The notes beneath the pieces were generated by a model. That model saw nothing but the letters and a program-made list of their open reading frames with translations, was not told the DNA's origin and did no database searches. A stretch of DNA of 64,000 nt, taken from Actinomycetota bacterium (lineage in GTDB: Bacteria; Actinomycetota; Geothermincolia; Geothermincolales; RBG-13-55-18). Positions 6,974-60,585 of this stretch are shown in pieces. Location: positions 76,834-140,833 of the forward strand of contig JAQVFR010000003.1 in NCBI GenBank assembly GCA_028697145.1, read 5' to 3'. The number at the start of each line of letters is the position of its first letter. The first letter of the stretch is position 1. A program made the translations under genes and the position numbers.

Positions 6974-7109
6974 ACCGAAAATGATACCACCTGCACCCAC
7001 CCTCCGCCTGTGCCGCGGGGTCAGGTTTTGCTTTCATGCAGAAAACCGCTGTTGCCAACAGGCAACATACCGGGGTATGCAAAAAACAAGACCTGACCCC
7101 ATCGAGCCG

Positions 7110-7769
7110 CTAGCCTCGCAACCTCTCCATACGCGCGGCTTCCTTGCGCTCCAGGGCCTTCTTGACCTTCTTGAGGCGGAAGATGTCCTCGCGGGCGCGC
7201 TCCTCGAGGCTCATCTGGATGAACTTGATCTGCTCGTCGTAATCGGGGATGACGATGTTCTCCAGCGCGTTCACGCGGCGGTTGGTCTTGCGCAGCTCCT
7301 CTCCAAGGCGCCTCAGCCGTGTCTCGATGTCGGCGGATTCGATGATAACGTCGATGATCTCCTCGAACTTCTCCGCCGCCGCGTCCACCCTGCTGGAGAC
7401 GCCGGTAATGCCGTACCCCCGCTTGAGGATATTGCGCATGCTGCTCTGCCCCTTGCGGATGACCGGGATAGGGACCCCCATGACGTGGGTACCCGTGATA
7501 TCCACCAGCACATCGCCCTGGGCGGCGTAGGACGCCGAGCGGACCTTCGTGCCCCCGTCCTTGGCCTTGGCCATGGCCAGGTCGAACTGGGCGTCGGCGG
7601 TAACTCTCTCCAGGCGCAGCGACAGACGCATGGTCTCATCGATGATGGGCATGAACTCCGCGAGCAGGGCGTCCCGCTTGCGTTTCAGAAGGTTCATCCC
7701 CTGGTCGGCCAGTGCGCGGTTGGCCTTGCGCTTTAAAAGCTCGCTCCGGGTCGGATGGACTTGTTCCAT
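7110..7769 (-). CDS. atpD: V/A-type ATP synthase subunit D
   Basis: 219 aa. The coiled-coil-rich sequence matches V-ATPase D; it is the last gene of the operon. Confidence 0.85.
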   Translation of the reverse strand: MEQVHPTRSELLKRKANRALADQGMNLLKRKRDALLAEFMPIIDETMRLSLRLERVTADAQFDLAMAKAKDGGTKVRSASYAAQGDVLVDITGTHVMGVPIPVIRKGQSSMRNILKRGYGITGVSSRVDAAAEKFEEIIDVIIESADIETRLRRLGEELRKTNRRVNALENIVIPDYDEQIKFIQMSLEERAREDIFRLKKVKKALERKEAARMERLRG

Positions 7770-56614: not shown

Positions 56615-57787
56615 CTACTTCGCGTGTCCCTGGGGATACGGCCGGCCCTCCCCCAGCACGGCATGCACTCCCGGCATGCGTTCGCTAACCGGGATGTCCT
56701 GGGGGCATTTCCCCTCGCATTCGCCGCAGGCGGTGCAGGCGCCGGCGCGGTCGGCCTCGGTGTAAAACCGGAAGTAGCGGAAGCGCGAGACCGGCAGGTC
56801 GTCGTATATCAGGCCGTTGTTGTAAAGCTCGAACATGGCCGGTATATCGACCCCCTGCGGGCAGGGCAGGCAGTAGCCGCACCCGGTGCAGGGGATTGCG
56901 GCCTTGCGCTCGAACGTTTCCCTCACGTGGGCTATGAGCTCCATGTCTTCCCGCCCCAGGCGGCGCTCCGCCGCATTTCGGGCCGTGAGGATGTTCTCCT
57001 CGAGCTGACCCATGTCGCTCATGCCGCTCAACACCACCGCGACCTCCGGCTGGTCCCATATCCACTGCAGCGCCCATTCCGCGGGAGTGCGCCCTTCCCC
57101 GTGGGCGTGGAATAACTCCCGCACGTCCGCGGGAGGCCTGGCCAGGTTCCCTCCCAGCAACGGCTCCATCACTACCACCGCGATCCCCCGCGACGCGGCG
57201 TACTGGAGCCCCCGCGTACCGGCCTGGTTCTCCGTGTCCATGTAGTTGTACTGTATCTGGCACATGGACCAGCCGTCGTAGCCGTCGATTATCTCCTCGA
57301 AGATCCCGTAGGCGTCGTGAAAGGAGAAGCCGACGCGGCCTATCCTGCCGTCGGCCACGGCGGCCTCCGCCCTGGCGAGAAGACCCTGAGCCTGGATGTT
57401 CTCCCACCTCTTCTTGTTCAGGCCGTGGAAGAGGTAGTAGTCGATTGGCCCGACCTGCAGCCTCTCCAACTGCTCATCCAGAAAACGATCGAAGTCGTCC
57501 GCGTTCTCCACAAGCCACACCGGCGACTTGGTGGCGATGTGCACCCTCTCGCGGTACCCGTCCCGCAGCGCCTTTCCCAGCAGGACCTCGCTGCGGCCTT
57601 CGTGATAGGTGTACGCGGTATCGAGGTAGTTGATCCCCTCGTCGATGGCGCGCCGGATCATCCTTATGGCCTCGTCCTCGACGATGTTGGCGCTGATGGG
57701 GATGCCGTCGCTGGTCGGCAACCGCATGCATCCGAAACCCAGGATAGACGCATCCCACCCGTCGCGCCCGAACTTCCTGTAAAGCAT
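56615..57787 (-). CDS. Aldo/keto reductase fused to a C-terminal 2x[4Fe-4S] ferredoxin-like domain
   Basis: AKR N-terminus (…GFGCMRLP…DTAYTYHEG…). C-terminal CTGCGYCLPCP and CTACGECEGKCP cysteine clusters. Confidence 0.8.
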   Translation of the reverse strand: MLYRKFGRDGWDASILGFGCMRLPTSDGIPISANIVEDEAIRMIRRAIDEGINYLDTAYTYHEGRSEVLLGKALRDGYRERVHIATKSPVWLVENADDFDRFLDEQLERLQVGPIDYYLFHGLNKKRWENIQAQGLLARAEAAVADGRIGRVGFSFHDAYGIFEEIIDGYDGWSMCQIQYNYMDTENQAGTRGLQYAASRGIAVVVMEPLLGGNLARPPADVRELFHAHGEGRTPAEWALQWIWDQPEVAVVLSGMSDMGQLEENILTARNAAERRLGREDMELIAHVRETFERKAAIPCTGCGYCLPCPQGVDIPAMFELYNNGLIYDDLPVSRFRYFRFYTEADRAGACTACGECEGKCPQDIPVSERMPGVHAVLGEGRPYPQGHAK

Positions 57788-57828
57788 CTTTCGCCACGAC
57801 CTCCTCGGCCCGCTACCGCTTCTCTTAT

Positions 57829-57876
57829 GGCATCTGTTTTTCCCGGCCTGGGTATATTAGATTTTCCCGGCCCGGG
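57829..57876 (+). repeat. Tandem 24-bp direct repeat (2 copies, 1 mismatch) in the AKR promoter region
   Basis: TTCCCGGCCTGGGTATATTAGATT / TTCCCGGCCCGGGTATATTAGATT, 42-89 bp upstream of the AKR start. Each copy carries a TAATAT -10-like hexamer and a CCGGGCC palindrome on the minus strand. Confidence 0.7.
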
Positions 57877-58090
57877 TATATTAGATTATCGTCATATCGT
57901 GCCGTAGTCCATGCGACGGATATAGGGGGTGGATGCGATGGGGGCAATGGACGCCCGGCTGGTTCGTGAGGGGCTGAAAAGGCACAACGCCGAGGAGATT
58001 GCCAGATTCAGTGATTTCCTCCCCCGGCTTTACAAGGAGTCCATATCAAGTCCACCGAGGGGATGATGGTAGCGGCAACTGCAATAAAAA

Positions 58091-58166
58091 TGGAGCCGAC
58101 GAGCGGACTCGAACCGCTGACCTGCTCATTACGAGTGAGCTGCTCTACCTGCTGAGCTACGTCGGC
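58091..58166 (-). tRNA. tRNA-Thr (anticodon CGU)
   Basis: Reverse complement GCCGACGTAGCTCAGCAGGTAGAGCAGCTCACTCGTAATGAGCAGGTCAGCGGTTCGAGTCCGCTCGTCGGCTCCA. 7-bp acceptor stem, GTTCGAGTC T-arm, anticodon loop CT-CGT-AA, encoded CCA. Confidence 0.85.
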
Positions 58167-58206
58167 ACCGTTTTAACAACCATAGATTATATCGTCAACC
58201 GCCCCT

Positions 58207-58405
58207 GGGGTCAGCCCTTAACATTCATCAAAACGTTAGCTGAGCTAACGGCTTTACCTTCGGGCAATCGAGAATAATATCGATCGACAAGTTGACTGTG
58301 GCCAGGCAACGGGTCTCGGCGGAATCCCATGTGCATCCTCGCAGCTAAGCATGATCATTATAATTAGCATTGCTAATGAAATGATGAATGTTAAGGGCTG
58401 ACCCC
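58207..58405. repeat. 199-bp AT-rich element bounded by perfect 22-bp terminal inverted repeats (GGGGTCAGCCCTTAACATTCAT); MITE-like or structured-RNA locus
   Basis: The left arm (58207-58228) is the exact reverse complement of the right arm (58384-58405). The interior is visibly AT-rich and holds two further short hairpins (CGTTAGC-TGA-GCTAACG; ATTAGCA-T-TGCTAAT). The right arm abuts the porB stop codon. Confidence 0.7.
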
Positions 58406-59368
58406 TTAGCGGGGTGGGGCGAGCTCGATGTCCATGATGTGTTCCTTCATCTTGTGGGTGAACTGCAGGGTCTCGAAGATGTGGTTGATACGCCCCTGTA
58501 TCTCCCCTATCCTCTCCTCGTCCTTCTCCGGCGAGAAGAGGTGGCGGAAACGCCCCTGCGCCCGCAGGTATTCCTCCACCGGGAGCAGCTTTGACTGCCC
58601 CTGGATGATGCGCTGCGTCCCCGCGGTATAGGTGGTCTTGCCCCCCTCGTGCTCATAGAGCATCCACATGCCGCTCTGCACCGCCATGCGGGCCACCTTG
58701 ATGGTGTGGGCGGATGGGAACTTCCACCCCGGCGGGCAGGGCGCCTGGATCTCGATGTAGCGCGTGCCCTTTATCTCCTTGGCCTTGGCGAACTTGCGGT
58801 ACATGTCGGTGGGATAGGCAAGGGAGGCGGTGGCCACGTAGGGGACGCCGTGGGCTACCATGATCTGGGCTACGTCCTTGCGCCACTCGTCCTTGCCCCG
58901 GGTGGTGTTGGAGGTCCAGGCGGCATAGGGTGTGGCGCCACTGCGCTGCGTGCCGGTGTTGGAGTAGGCCTCGTTGTTGTAGCACACGTAGATGAAATCG
59001 GTGTTGCGCTCCGCCGCCCCGGAAAGGGCCTGGATGCCGATGTCGTAGGTGCCGCCGTCCCCCGCCCACACCAGGATGGTGGGCTTTTCCTTGAAGGTGC
59101 CCCTGGCCACCAGGCGATCCGCCGCGGCGGTGAGCCCGGAGGCGGTTGCTCCTCCCGTGGCGAAGGCCATGTTCAGGGTGGGCAGGTTGAGCGCCGAGAC
59201 CGGGAAGGGGCTCTGCAGCACCGAGGTGCAGGAGGCGATGACGCAGAGTATGGTCTCCCTGCCCAGCGCCTTGAAGGCCACGCGCAAGGCGGCGCTGCCG
59301 GGACACCCCTGGCACGCGGCGCTGCCCTGCAGGAATAGTTCCTCCTCGGGGAAGTCGCGCAGCCTCAC
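58406..59368 (-). CDS. porB: Pyruvate/2-oxoacid:ferredoxin oxidoreductase beta subunit (TPP-binding)
   Basis: …SAACQGCPGS… N-terminal Cys motif and a TPP-binding GDG region. GTG start overlapping the porA stop (GTGA). Confidence 0.85.
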   Translation of the reverse strand: MRLRDFPEEELFLQGSAACQGCPGSAALRVAFKALGRETILCVIASCTSVLQSPFPVSALNLPTLNMAFATGGATASGLTAAADRLVARGTFKEKPTILVWAGDGGTYDIGIQALSGAAERNTDFIYVCYNNEAYSNTGTQRSGATPYAAWTSNTTRGKDEWRKDVAQIMVAHGVPYVATASLAYPTDMYRKFAKAKEIKGTRYIEIQAPCPPGWKFPSAHTIKVARMAVQSGMWMLYEHEGGKTTYTAGTQRIIQGQSKLLPVEEYLRAQGRFRHLFSPEKDEERIGEIQGRINHIFETLQFTHKMKEHIMDIELAPPR

Positions 59369-60585
59369 AGCACTCCCTCCCTTTTCCAGTACTCTTCCAG
59401 GCCCCGTTTGCTCACGCGGTGGTGCTCGGTCAGGCGCAGGCTGGGCCAGTTGCTCTCCGGCGCCATCTTGCCCTCCAGGGCGGCCTCGGTCCTCTCCGCG
59501 ACGAGGTCATACCTGACATCGCGCCCCCCCAGGCCGGTGATGAGGTTGTACACTATGGCGTCGCCGTGGCCGTAGATGGCCGCCTTGACCTCGGAGAAAA
59601 GCGCTCCTTCGAGACCGAAGGATACGCCGCGGTCCAATACCATGACCGCCCGCATGGGGGACAACAGTTCGCGAAGCTCCGCGATGGGAAAAGGCCGGTA
59701 CGAGCGCACCCGTACCAACCCGCATCGGTATCCCTTATCCCGCAGCATGTCCACGGCCATCTTGCACTCCGAGGCCATGCTTCCCATGGCCACCAGGGCG
59801 CAGTCCGCGTCATCGATGCGGTAGGTCTCCACCATGTCGCCGTGGTAATTGCCGATTATGTCGCGGTACTCCTCCGCCGCCCGCCTGATCGCCCCGCGCG
59901 CGTTGTCCAGCCCCTGGAACATGGAGAAGCGCACCTCCTCGTAGTCGTCGGGGTAGATGACCGAGCCGTGGGTGAGCGGGTAGTCGAGGTCCAGTTTCCA
60001 AAGGGAGCGGAAAGGCGGCAGGAAGCGGTCCACATTTTCCTGGTCCGGCACCTCCACCTGCATGTAGCTGTGGCTGATGAAGATGGCGTCGTAGCAGACC
60101 ATTACCGGCAGGATGACCTTGAAGTCCTCGGAGATGCGGTAGGCCTGGATCACGGTGTCGAGCACCTCCTGGTGGGAGGCGCAATAGAGCTGTATCCAAC
60201 CCGTGTCCCGCGCCGCCAGGGCGTCCTGGTGATCGCACCAGATATTCCAGCCCGGCCCCATGGCGCGGTTGACGTTGACCATGACCATGGGCAGGCGGAT
60301 GCCCGCCGCCCAGTGCAGGAGCTCGTGCATGTAGGCCAGGCCGTGGGATGAGGTGGCGGAGAAGGAGCGCACCCCCATGGCCGCCGAGCCGATCATGGCG
60401 GCCATGGCGCTGTGCTCGCTCTCCACGGGGATGTATTCGCAGTCCATCTCCCCCTCGTCGATAAAGCGCGATATCTCCTCGATCACCTGGGTCTGCGGGG
60501 TTATGGGATAGGCGGAGACCACCTCCACGCGCGCCAAGCGCGCGCCCCAGGCCGCGAAGTGGTTTCCGGTGTCGACCAGTTTCAT
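59365..60585 (-). CDS. porA: Pyruvate/2-oxoacid:ferredoxin oxidoreductase alpha subunit
   Basis: Start at the ATG giving MKLVDTGNHFAAWGARLARVEVVSAYPITPQT, preceded by AGGAAAAGAAGGA. The track ORF's upstream extension overlaps porD. Confidence 0.85.
   Translation of the reverse strand: MKLVDTGNHFAAWGARLARVEVVSAYPITPQTQVIEEISRFIDEGEMDCEYIPVESEHSAMAAMIGSAAMGVRSFSATSSHGLAYMHELLHWAAGIRLPMVMVNVNRAMGPGWNIWCDHQDALAARDTGWIQLYCASHQEVLDTVIQAYRISEDFKVILPVMVCYDAIFISHSYMQVEVPDQENVDRFLPPFRSLWKLDLDYPLTHGSVIYPDDYEEVRFSMFQGLDNARGAIRRAAEEYRDIIGNYHGDMVETYRIDDADCALVAMGSMASECKMAVDMLRDKGYRCGLVRVRSYRPFPIAELRELLSPMRAVMVLDRGVSFGLEGALFSEVKAAIYGHGDAIVYNLITGLGGRDVRYDLVAERTEAALEGKMAPESNWPSLRLTEHHRVSKRGLEEYWKREGVL

Follow-up and report, generated by a model that had tools for sequence, protein, structure and literature searches.

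What kind of element occupies the spacer between porB, which encodes the beta subunit of pyruvate:ferredoxin oxidoreductase, and a tRNA-Thr gene in a contig of an Actinomycetota bacterium (assembly GCA_028697145.1, contig JAQVFR010000003.1)? The stretch that we analysed, hereafter the window, comprises 64,000 nucleotides (positions 76,834 to 140,833 of the forward strand), and, judged by the names that homologues of its PorB bear, the organism falls within the Geothermincolia / 'Candidatus Solincola' part of Actinomycetota. A first-pass annotation of the window had noticed a 199-bp element bounded by inverted repeats in this spacer, and had read it as either a miniature inverted-repeat transposable element (MITE) or a structured RNA of the por transcript. 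We consider, with a probability of roughly 0.78, that the element is a non-autonomous dimer of terminal inverted repeats (TIRs) belonging to a family dispersed in uncultured Geothermincolia-type Actinomycetota, that its termini match those of a single-copy, vertically inherited transposase gene of the class called TIRYT, and that the TIRYT creates or maintains the repeats. The element and its neighbours are arranged as follows (positions are those of the window).

58207..58405, minus strand (read from the A end to the B end, the strand common to porB and tRNA-Thr): whole inverted-repeat element (TIR dimer), 199 bp, defined from the sequence, with identical same-locus copies in L026 and L048.
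58382..58405, minus strand: A-end terminal repeat GGGGTCAGCCCTTAACATTCATCA, touching the porB stop codon; 24/24 identity to the right terminus of the L104 TIRYT gene unit.
58207..58230, plus strand: B-end terminal repeat, the exact reverse complement of the A end by inverted-repeat comparison.
58364..58376, minus strand: A-end subterminal palindrome TTAGCAATGCTAA, which together with the 5-nt spacer TTTCA (58377-58381) completes the ~45-nt conserved end unit.
58236..58248, plus strand: B-end subterminal palindrome TTAGCTGAGCTAA, with the 5-nt spacer AAACG (58231-58235).
58249..58363, no strand assigned: locus-specific interior, without similarity to any other copy.
58406..59368, minus strand: porB, thiamine pyrophosphate-binding beta subunit; its TAA stop adjoins the element.
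58091..58166, minus strand: tRNA-Thr(CGT), separated from the B end by 40 bp and downstream of it on this strand.

The arms are perfect inverted repeats as first described, albeit over 24 bp instead of 22 bp, and the complementarity extends to 42 nt at 83%. The right arm had been placed one base beyond the porB stop codon; in fact it ends at 58405 and the minus-strand open reading frame (ORF) carrying the stop begins at 58406, that is, the two are in direct contact. The 40-bp distance to the tRNA gene was correct, and the two small interior hairpins reported earlier correspond to the subterminal palindromes listed above. The GC content of the element is lower than that of the window (47% vs 64%), which agrees with the AT-richness previously noted, albeit the word 'conspicuously' overstated it. 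No direct repeat or target-site duplication was found at the borders of the element, as the first-pass annotation had also observed. The 22-mer terminus is found in a single element within the window, and the number of matches to it, with up to three mismatches allowed, never reached two in 100 dinucleotide-preserving shuffles of the window.

The same terminus, GGGGTCAGCCCTTAACATTC[G/A]TCA, is present at about 125 ends in related Actinomycetota metagenome-assembled genomes (MAGs) and metagenomes. Loci were gathered with the exact terminal 20-mer, while partner ends were allowed up to four mismatches. This copy-number search, which had been proposed earlier, returned 10 loci when one genome per species was screened, seven of them on contigs of one uncultured Actinomycetota MAG, and 73 further loci in the metagenome scan. 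The ends form 39 pairs, with 47 left as solo ends, and the pairs shorter than 450 bp range from 71 to 393 bp with a mode of 172–202 bp. Where neighbouring ends are no more than 450 bp apart, 36 cases are outward-facing, none is inward-facing and one is in tandem, which argues that the dimer is a structured unit and not two random insertions. The extent of the repeat at the por locus can also be seen in assembly behaviour: k=31 Logan contigs encoding the exact PorB, or the exact aldo/keto reductase beyond the tRNA gene, end 30 nt into the A end or begin about 30 nt into the B end, as a de Bruijn graph does where unique sequence meets a repeat, and the repeat boundary is thus located at the outer GGGG. 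A JGI contig (L026) was 100% identical across the entire porB-tRNA spacer.

In the conserved end unit of about 45 nt, GGGGTCAGCCCTTAACATTCATCA forms the 24-nt core and is followed by a spacer of 5 nt and the palindrome TTAGCnnnGCTAA of 13 nt, and the interior of the porB-tRNA element amounts to about 115 bp. Information content was ~2 bits per position at positions 1-25 (at positions 1-20 partly by construction, a bias taken up below), 0.2-0.5 bits at positions 26-45 and nearly zero beyond position 46. In the 109 unique ends that were pooled, positions 21-24 of the terminus and the partner ends were nearly invariant, though neither was imposed by the search pattern. The same ends have an outer flank preference for T at -1 (72%) and A at -2 (59%); AT at both outer flanks is palindromic, and the two flanks of any one copy do not consistently agree in it.

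The interiors, by contrast with the shared ends, are mutually unrelated between loci, except for pairs of contigs from the same locus and for L056 and L060, and the interior of the porB-tRNA element was not found elsewhere in the 685 kb of fetched DNA. L056 and L060 are paralogous, as the two elements are 79% identical throughout and their flanks are unrelated by both blastn and tblastx. This pair is the only direct sign of whole-dimer copying, and it favours the copying of units. An interpretation of the pair as one locus in diverged lineages, based on 72% 'flank identity' in a global alignment, is ruled out by the unrelated flanks, and the argument for constraint that went with it is withdrawn.

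No target-site duplication was detected among 34 copies. Judged by a crude ORF-based gene call, all 34 distinct-locus dimers shorter than 420 bp lie between genes, and no gene runs across any of them. In about 20 of the 34, a stop codon lies within a few nucleotides of the boundary, or the TAA inside the terminus is used as the stop, and several dimers are situated between convergent genes. We also considered a polarity in which stop codons would come before the A end and ribosome-binding sites after the B end; the crude gene call confirms the adjacency to stop codons (often at both ends, between convergent genes), and the A/B polarity was not established. As a separate observation, the longest flanking ORF in L014, L051, L052, L084, L098, L099 and L100 enters the terminus and stops at the TAA in CCCTTAAC, which would append ...G-V-S-P to the product; the terminus carries outward-reading stop codons in all three frames (TGA, TAA, TGA).

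Three pairs of matching ends are 1.1-1.6 kb apart and enclose genes: a hydrolase gene in L086, an RsgA gene in L097 and a transposase ORF in L069. The L069 pair (1152 bp) encloses an ORF of 340 aa, the stop codon of which lies inside the right terminus. The protein matches Pfam Y1_Tnp with 53 bits (cutoff 23), and its C-terminal tail, as a single sequence, scored 27 bits against Bac_DnaA_C (cutoff 31.5); a phmmer search of the single protein against the PDB gave nothing. In an alignment of 40 homologues, H60 and H62 (the HUH motif), Y118, H120, N122 and P123 (Y118-x-H-x-N-P) are invariant, and the profile of these 40 sequences matches DnaA domain IV structures with E = 3.6e-11. Close homologues are labelled 'REP element-mobilizing transposase RayT' by JGI, and many homologues carry a precomputed PF08299 assignment. 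We regard the gene as a TIRYT for the reasons given below.

The TIRYT gene occurs once in the 685 kb of fetched DNA, which contains more than 100 repeat ends. Its homologues in L104, L105, L110 and L111, with 44-69% identity, occupy the same chromosomal site, always with a DUF4130/MJ1433 gene on one side and a convergent radical-SAM gene on the other, and L069, L104 and L105 share the downstream sequence as well. The perfect TIRs flanking the gene measure 27 bp in L069, 26 bp in L105, 27 bp in L110 and 13 bp only in L111, and the L104 contig begins inside the left TIR. The TIRs of these homologues start with GGGGTCAGCC and then vary by lineage, any change on one side of the gene being repeated on the other; the flanking repeats diverge along with the TIRYT protein, and L105, L110 and L111 carry further variants on both gene sides. 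In L069, L104 and L110, the gene stop is the TGA within GGGCTGACCCC. In L110 (1072-1140), we noticed a tandem duplication of the left terminus, the two AAAAATGGGGTCAGCCCCCGAAATTCGAAAC copies being 40 bp from each other.

The variant of the terminus can be matched to the lineage. The TIRYT gene of L104 is flanked by the very variant of the 199-bp element, ...CATTCATCA followed by TTAGCAATGCTAA; positions 1-49 of the element have 92% identity to the right end of L104, and the terminus is identical at 24 of 24 positions. L104 comes from the sequencing run SRR32252321, as does L021, which is 100% identical to the tRNA-side flank of the 199-bp element over the overlap. At position 21 of the terminus, 31 of 34 MTKY01 ends have A, as does L104, and 40 of 41 ends from Ga0209254, the source of L069, have G, as does L069 itself.

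Two papers describe systems of this kind. Di Nocera, De Gregorio & Rocco (2013) reported RAYT-like genes (RAYTs are tyrosine transposases associated with REPs, or repetitive extragenic palindromes) bounded by long TIRs in place of REP hairpins, and introduced the names TIRYT for the protein and TIRtron for the unit; GGGGWSAS is common to many of the TIRs, and in some genomes the TIR families are moderately abundant, as singles, dimers or groups/clusters (PMC3733652). Quentin et al. (2018) assigned most TIRYTs to TnpA_REP subclass 2.1, which is marked by a C-terminal Bac_DnaA_C or helix-turn-helix (HTH) domain (HTH_23 or HTH_28), and described the GGGG[AT][CG]A[CG] termini as unlike DnaA boxes (PMC6006769). 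The hosts named in the text of these papers include Acidobacteria, Stenotrophomonas, Pseudomonas, Accumulibacter and others (PMC3733652, PMC6006769). The present system shares with TIRtrons a RAYT-like Y1/HUH gene with long flanking TIRs, the overlap of the right TIR with the 3' end of the gene, the HTH tail of DnaA_C type, the dispersal of TIR copies as singles, dimers and occasional tandems, and a terminus that begins with GGGGWSAS, which is GGGGTCAG in the 199-bp element and in all five gene-flanking TIRs. What differs here is the host, an uncultured Geothermincolia-type lineage of Actinomycetota, and the dominance of dimers, which have a narrow length mode and unrelated interiors and are often flush with stop codons. 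The porB-tRNA element is a new instance, in a new host lineage, of a known but barely studied class of TIRYT/TIRtron repeats.

The REPIN-RAYT systems (Bertels & Rainey 2011, PMC3116915; Nunvar et al. 2010, PMC2817692) resemble the present one in that a single-copy, vertically inherited Y1 transposase is bordered by the repeats that it supposedly disperses, and in that these are extragenic, non-autonomous inverted doublets forming long hairpins and lacking target duplications; in the REPIN-RAYT model, such a transposase disperses the doublets (PMC5581495). In contrast, REPs are short self-palindromes with a GTAG tag, whereas the arms examined here are not convincing palindromes (self-pairing of the 24-nt arm is at most a 3-bp GGG/CCC by inspection) and lack GTAG; CGTC, an alternative REP tag, is found in the G variant (…TTCGTCA), and the 199-bp element has CATC at this place. 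REPIN spacers are conserved within a family, unlike the interiors described above, and the present protein has the extra DnaA-like domain and scores under the NCBIfam RAYT cutoff. Insertion sequences (ISs) of the IS200/IS605 group (IS608, ISDra2) share the Pfam Y1_Tnp catalytic family, a weak profile match to ISDra2 TnpA (2XM3) and the lack of target duplication, and the short AT flank preference recalls their fixed target tetra- or pentanucleotides. Nevertheless, their ends are subterminal hairpins without TIRs and the ISs are multi-copy, whereas here the TIRs are long and the gene is single-copy at a fixed site.

By analogy with what has been proposed for RAYTs and REPINs, the TIRYT would create and maintain the repeats in the following manner. 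In single-stranded DNA, the two arms would pair to form a long hairpin, the Y1 enzyme would cut near AT|GGGG at the foot of the hairpin and rejoin the unit elsewhere without target duplication, while the DnaA-like domain may bind the duplex terminus. These steps are modelled on the homology to IS200/IS605 and RAYT enzymes and on the REPIN model. Situated after the porB stop codon and before the tRNA-Thr promoter, the element probably forms part of the 3' end of por transcripts, which would either finish in its hairpin with a 24-bp stem or continue past it. Such a hairpin could stabilise the message or protect its 3' end, terminate transcription, or undergo cleavage by RNase III, and any effect on por or tRNA expression would be like those reported for REPs and other bacterial MITEs.

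Comparison with relatives indicates that the element is specific to its lineage. The porB-tRNA-Thr spacer differs in each of the four relatives compared:

L107 (PorB 91%): a different 124-bp dimer (GGGGTCAGGTCTTGTTTTTTGCAT), directly 3' of the porB stop codon.
L108 (PorB 89%): a decayed relative of the L107 element in the spacer.
L109 (PorB 85%): a spacer of 32 nt only, and a 71-bp dimer of a fourth terminus type downstream of the tRNA gene.
L106 (PorB 92%): ~1.1 kb of unrelated sequence in the spacer.

As none of these spacers holds the 199-bp element, its interior is not ancestral spacer DNA, and the contents of the spacers argue that the site has been occupied repeatedly by the same broad class of elements. 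The terminus types of the sister families are GGTCTTGTTTTTTGCAT, GGCCTTAAATGTTAAAT and GACCTCAAAAAT. The search for empty sites suggested in the first-pass annotation was partly successful, as L109 with its 32 nt is nearly empty and no clean empty site was recovered in relatives; a strict empty site (porB end, no more than 30 nt, tRNA promoter) was not found in the metagenomes either.

Several points weigh against the proposal that the TIRYT disperses these repeats. Among the loci compared, no transposition event of the GGGGTCAGCCCTTAACATTC family was seen, nor did a clean pair of filled and empty sites emerge for this family, L109 being only a near-empty site in a relative with 85% PorB identity. 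The TIRYT gene was not found within the 64-kb window, and it is the shared sample and the matching variant that suggest its presence in the same genome as the porB-tRNA element. The best NCBIfam match of the L069 protein is REP_Tyr_transpos ('REP-associated tyrosine transposase') with 69 bits, under the cutoff of 80, and the 40-sequence profile matched E. coli TnpA_REP (4ER8) and ISDra2 TnpA (2XM3) weakly (E ~0.15), with E = 0.14 for the N-terminal TnpA_REP match. The collection by an exact 20-mer introduces an ascertainment bias, so that the conservation of terminus positions 1-20 is partly built in. PMC3733652 and PMC6006769, both comparative papers and the only ones in the literature searched to use the term, report no biochemical experiment on any TIRYT. 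Finally, unrelated interiors appear unusual for a family that spreads by whole-unit copying, and unit duplication is evident in one paralogous pair only, L056/L060.

This last point deserves a further consideration. The combination of unrelated interiors, lengths within about 10% and near-identical ends is not explained by simple copy-and-decay, and it may instead reflect great age with only the ends under constraint, an interplay with the enzyme that still goes on, or de novo assembly of dimers. It is tempting to speculate, and we regard it as possible rather than probable, that the dimers are long-lived partners of a domesticated, vertically inherited TIRYT: a continuing interplay with the protein, be it re-mobilisation, conversion or selection for binding by its DnaA-like domain, would preserve only the ~45-nt ends, nearly identical at dozens of loci and matched to the enzyme of the lineage. 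The interiors would meanwhile drift or give way to other sequence, and whichever GGGGWSAS family is current in a lineage would settle again in permissive sites, the porB-tRNA-Thr spacer among them. If this is the case, the lineage offers a natural system for the co-evolution of tyrosine transposases and repeats outside Proteobacteria, and for recognition by the DnaA-like domain.

Among the rival explanations, the one that survives best regards the repeats as host-recruited cis-elements, immobile and kept as stabilisers or terminators of mRNA 3' ends or as sites for the DnaA-like domain of a domesticated TIRYT. The adjacency of about 20 of the 34 copies to stop codons, several of them between convergent genes, and the near-invariant termini around free interiors are what such a role would predict, and the TIRYT, being single-copy and syntenic down to 44% protein identity, looks domesticated; REPs and RAYTs have been argued to persist likewise (PMC5581495). 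Read on the minus strand, the B-end palindrome forms a weak stem-loop followed by TTTT and scans as a weak terminator. Nevertheless, that structure has a stem of only 5-7 bp and four T, and any cis role is a prediction from the sequence. Placement at gene ends may instead reflect purifying selection against insertions into genes of a compact genome combined with the AT target preference, and the porB-tRNA site is subject to turnover among relatives, not to conservation. We therefore consider recruitment alone unlikely, albeit the idea is compatible with dispersal by the TIRYT.

The classical MITE, namely an internally deleted derivative of a DDE-type IS or a Tn3-like element mobilised in trans through its TIRs, is harder to defend, and we think it improbable. 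The first-pass annotation was right in that the element is small, non-coding, TIR-bounded and a member of a dispersed multi-copy family, and its size, perfect TIRs, spread and lower GC content would all fit a MITE; the GGGG start is, presumably, superficially like the inverted repeats of the Tn3 family, and a true MITE-type insertion with a 5-bp duplication exists in the same genomes, inside L019. The assignment failed in that no copy out of 34 has a target-site duplication, that the copies share ends of ~45 nt without sharing an interior, and that the only coding unit within these termini, at five orthologous loci, is a Y1/HUH and not a DDE enzyme. The neighbourhoods of the solo ends L011, L016 and L018 contained housekeeping genes only and no autonomous element, and no DDE gene was found beside any solo end examined. 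Bacterial MITEs of the Correia/NEMIS, RUP and ERIC kinds derive from DDE ISs, make target duplications (TA in the case of Correia elements) and share interiors, none of which applies here. By the summary in PMC3733652, the transcribed bacterial MITEs (Correia/NEMIS, RUP, ERIC) are similar in being 70-300 bp long with TIRs of 15-30 bp and lying beside coding sequences, and their strong hairpins, able to stabilise or destabilise mRNA, may serve as an RNA-level model for the porB-tRNA element.

Far less probable is a locus-specific structured RNA, either a small RNA or a 3'-untranslated element of por, closed by the long terminal helix. The position of the element on the transcribed strand directly 3' of porB would fit it, and the whole element does fold better than shuffles (z = -7.9 as RNA, -7.6 as single-stranded DNA). 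However, the folding check proposed in the first-pass annotation showed that the interior without the terminal repeats (151 nt, 58231-58381) has z = -0.8, no better than shuffles, and the signal is thus due to the 24-bp terminal stem alone. A permissive Rfam search (E <= 1) of 57000-59500 returned the tRNA as the sole match and nothing for the element, relatives with 85-92% PorB identity lack its sequence in this spacer, and the termini are common to more than 100 unrelated loci. The weakest alternative, an incidental palindrome without any family, agrees with its single occurrence in the window and is refuted by the shuffles and by more than 100 ends elsewhere; a single copy with conserved synteny, which would have reduced the element to such a palindrome, is not what was found.

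Further candidates were dropped. A tRNA-linked integration site is ruled out, as the element is upstream of the tRNA promoter, there is no integrase, and no other copy lies beside a tRNA gene. An integron attC site, an Xer/dif module and a Tn3 inverted repeat have partial motif matches only; the repeats are dispersed, not arrayed, and make no duplication.

The palindrome belongs to a genome-wide repeat system and is not a por- or tRNA-specific signal; annotators should thus not label it as a small RNA or an att site. The lineage is a clean case, in that the gene is single and syntenic, the repeats number in the dozens and the terminus variants track the enzyme; it could reveal the recognition target of a Y1 transposase that carries a DnaA-like domain, and the means by which such repeats are kept. 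The repeats also break short-read assemblies exactly at repeat boundaries, leading to fragmented MAGs of this group, and they can give rise to chimeric joins. For instance, in L005 (ENA ERZ1026792, coverage 1.5; 2034-2302), porB and the first 34 nt of the 199-bp element are joined to unrelated sequence containing a terminator-like hairpin and a GGGGTCAGGTCTTGTTTTTTGCAT element, which is probably an assembly chimera joined through the repeat.

Some loci of the collection merit separate mention. Two ends on the same strand lie 43 bp apart in L081. Downstream of the solo end in L018 (5100-5180), a short palindromic motif, CCGGGGTCAACCCCGGCCG, occurs twice at a distance of ~50 bp and has the GGGGTCA core in common with the terminus. 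In L013 (a Paceibacterota MAG, 1328-1351) and L085 (Ga0265297), the 20-mer is part of a self-contained hairpin with an 11-bp stem, AATGTTAAGGG-GTCAG-CCCTTAACATT, without any further similarity, and we treated both as chance or unrelated matches, of which we estimate that about one is expected in a collection of that size. L019 (6131-6523) and L102 (5984-6170) represent one locus in two assemblies, and L019 has a 206-bp insertion inside the dimer interior. The insertion has its own TIRs of ~24 nt (TGGTTCTTCTCC...GGAGAAGAACCA) and an inner GGGGTCAGACCTCAAAAAT inverted pair, and is flanked by a 5-bp duplication-like ATTTA/CTTTA, the empty site in L102 being CTTTA. Judged from the two assemblies, the difference is a genuine polymorphism, filled in L019 and empty in L102, of another element, which is of the classical MITE type and makes duplications.

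Three more features of the window were noted, the first of them speculative.

58186..58214, minus strand: promoter-like site, with a -35-like CTGACC (58209-58214) inside the B-end repeat and TATAAT (58186-58191) upstream of the tRNA gene, at 17-bp spacing.
57840..57890: a ~25-nt unit, TTCCCGGCCYGGGTATATTAGAT, tandemly duplicated in the spacer between tRNA-Thr and an aldo/keto-reductase/ferredoxin-domain gene (56615-57787, minus strand).
7017..7100, no strand assigned: second inverted-repeat element, 84 bp, intergenic, of a sister GGGGWSAS family (GGGGTCAGGTCTTGTTTTTTGCAT type, as in L107).

The CTGACC/TATAAT geometry is also found in L107 and L017, and overall in 4 of 107 flanks, so that CTGACC as a -35 box for downstream genes is not a property of the family and at most a local accident. 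The duplicated TTCCCGGCCYGGGTATATTAGAT unit includes TATATT and could be a duplicated -10 region. The arms of the 84-bp element, GGGGTCAGGTTTTGCTTT and AAAACAAGACCTGACCCC, match over 18 nt at 89%, and the element lies 9 nt beyond the stop codon of a minus-strand ORF (7110-7769). In its right arm and interior, it is similar to the tail of L005 and to the porB-tRNA spacer element of L107.

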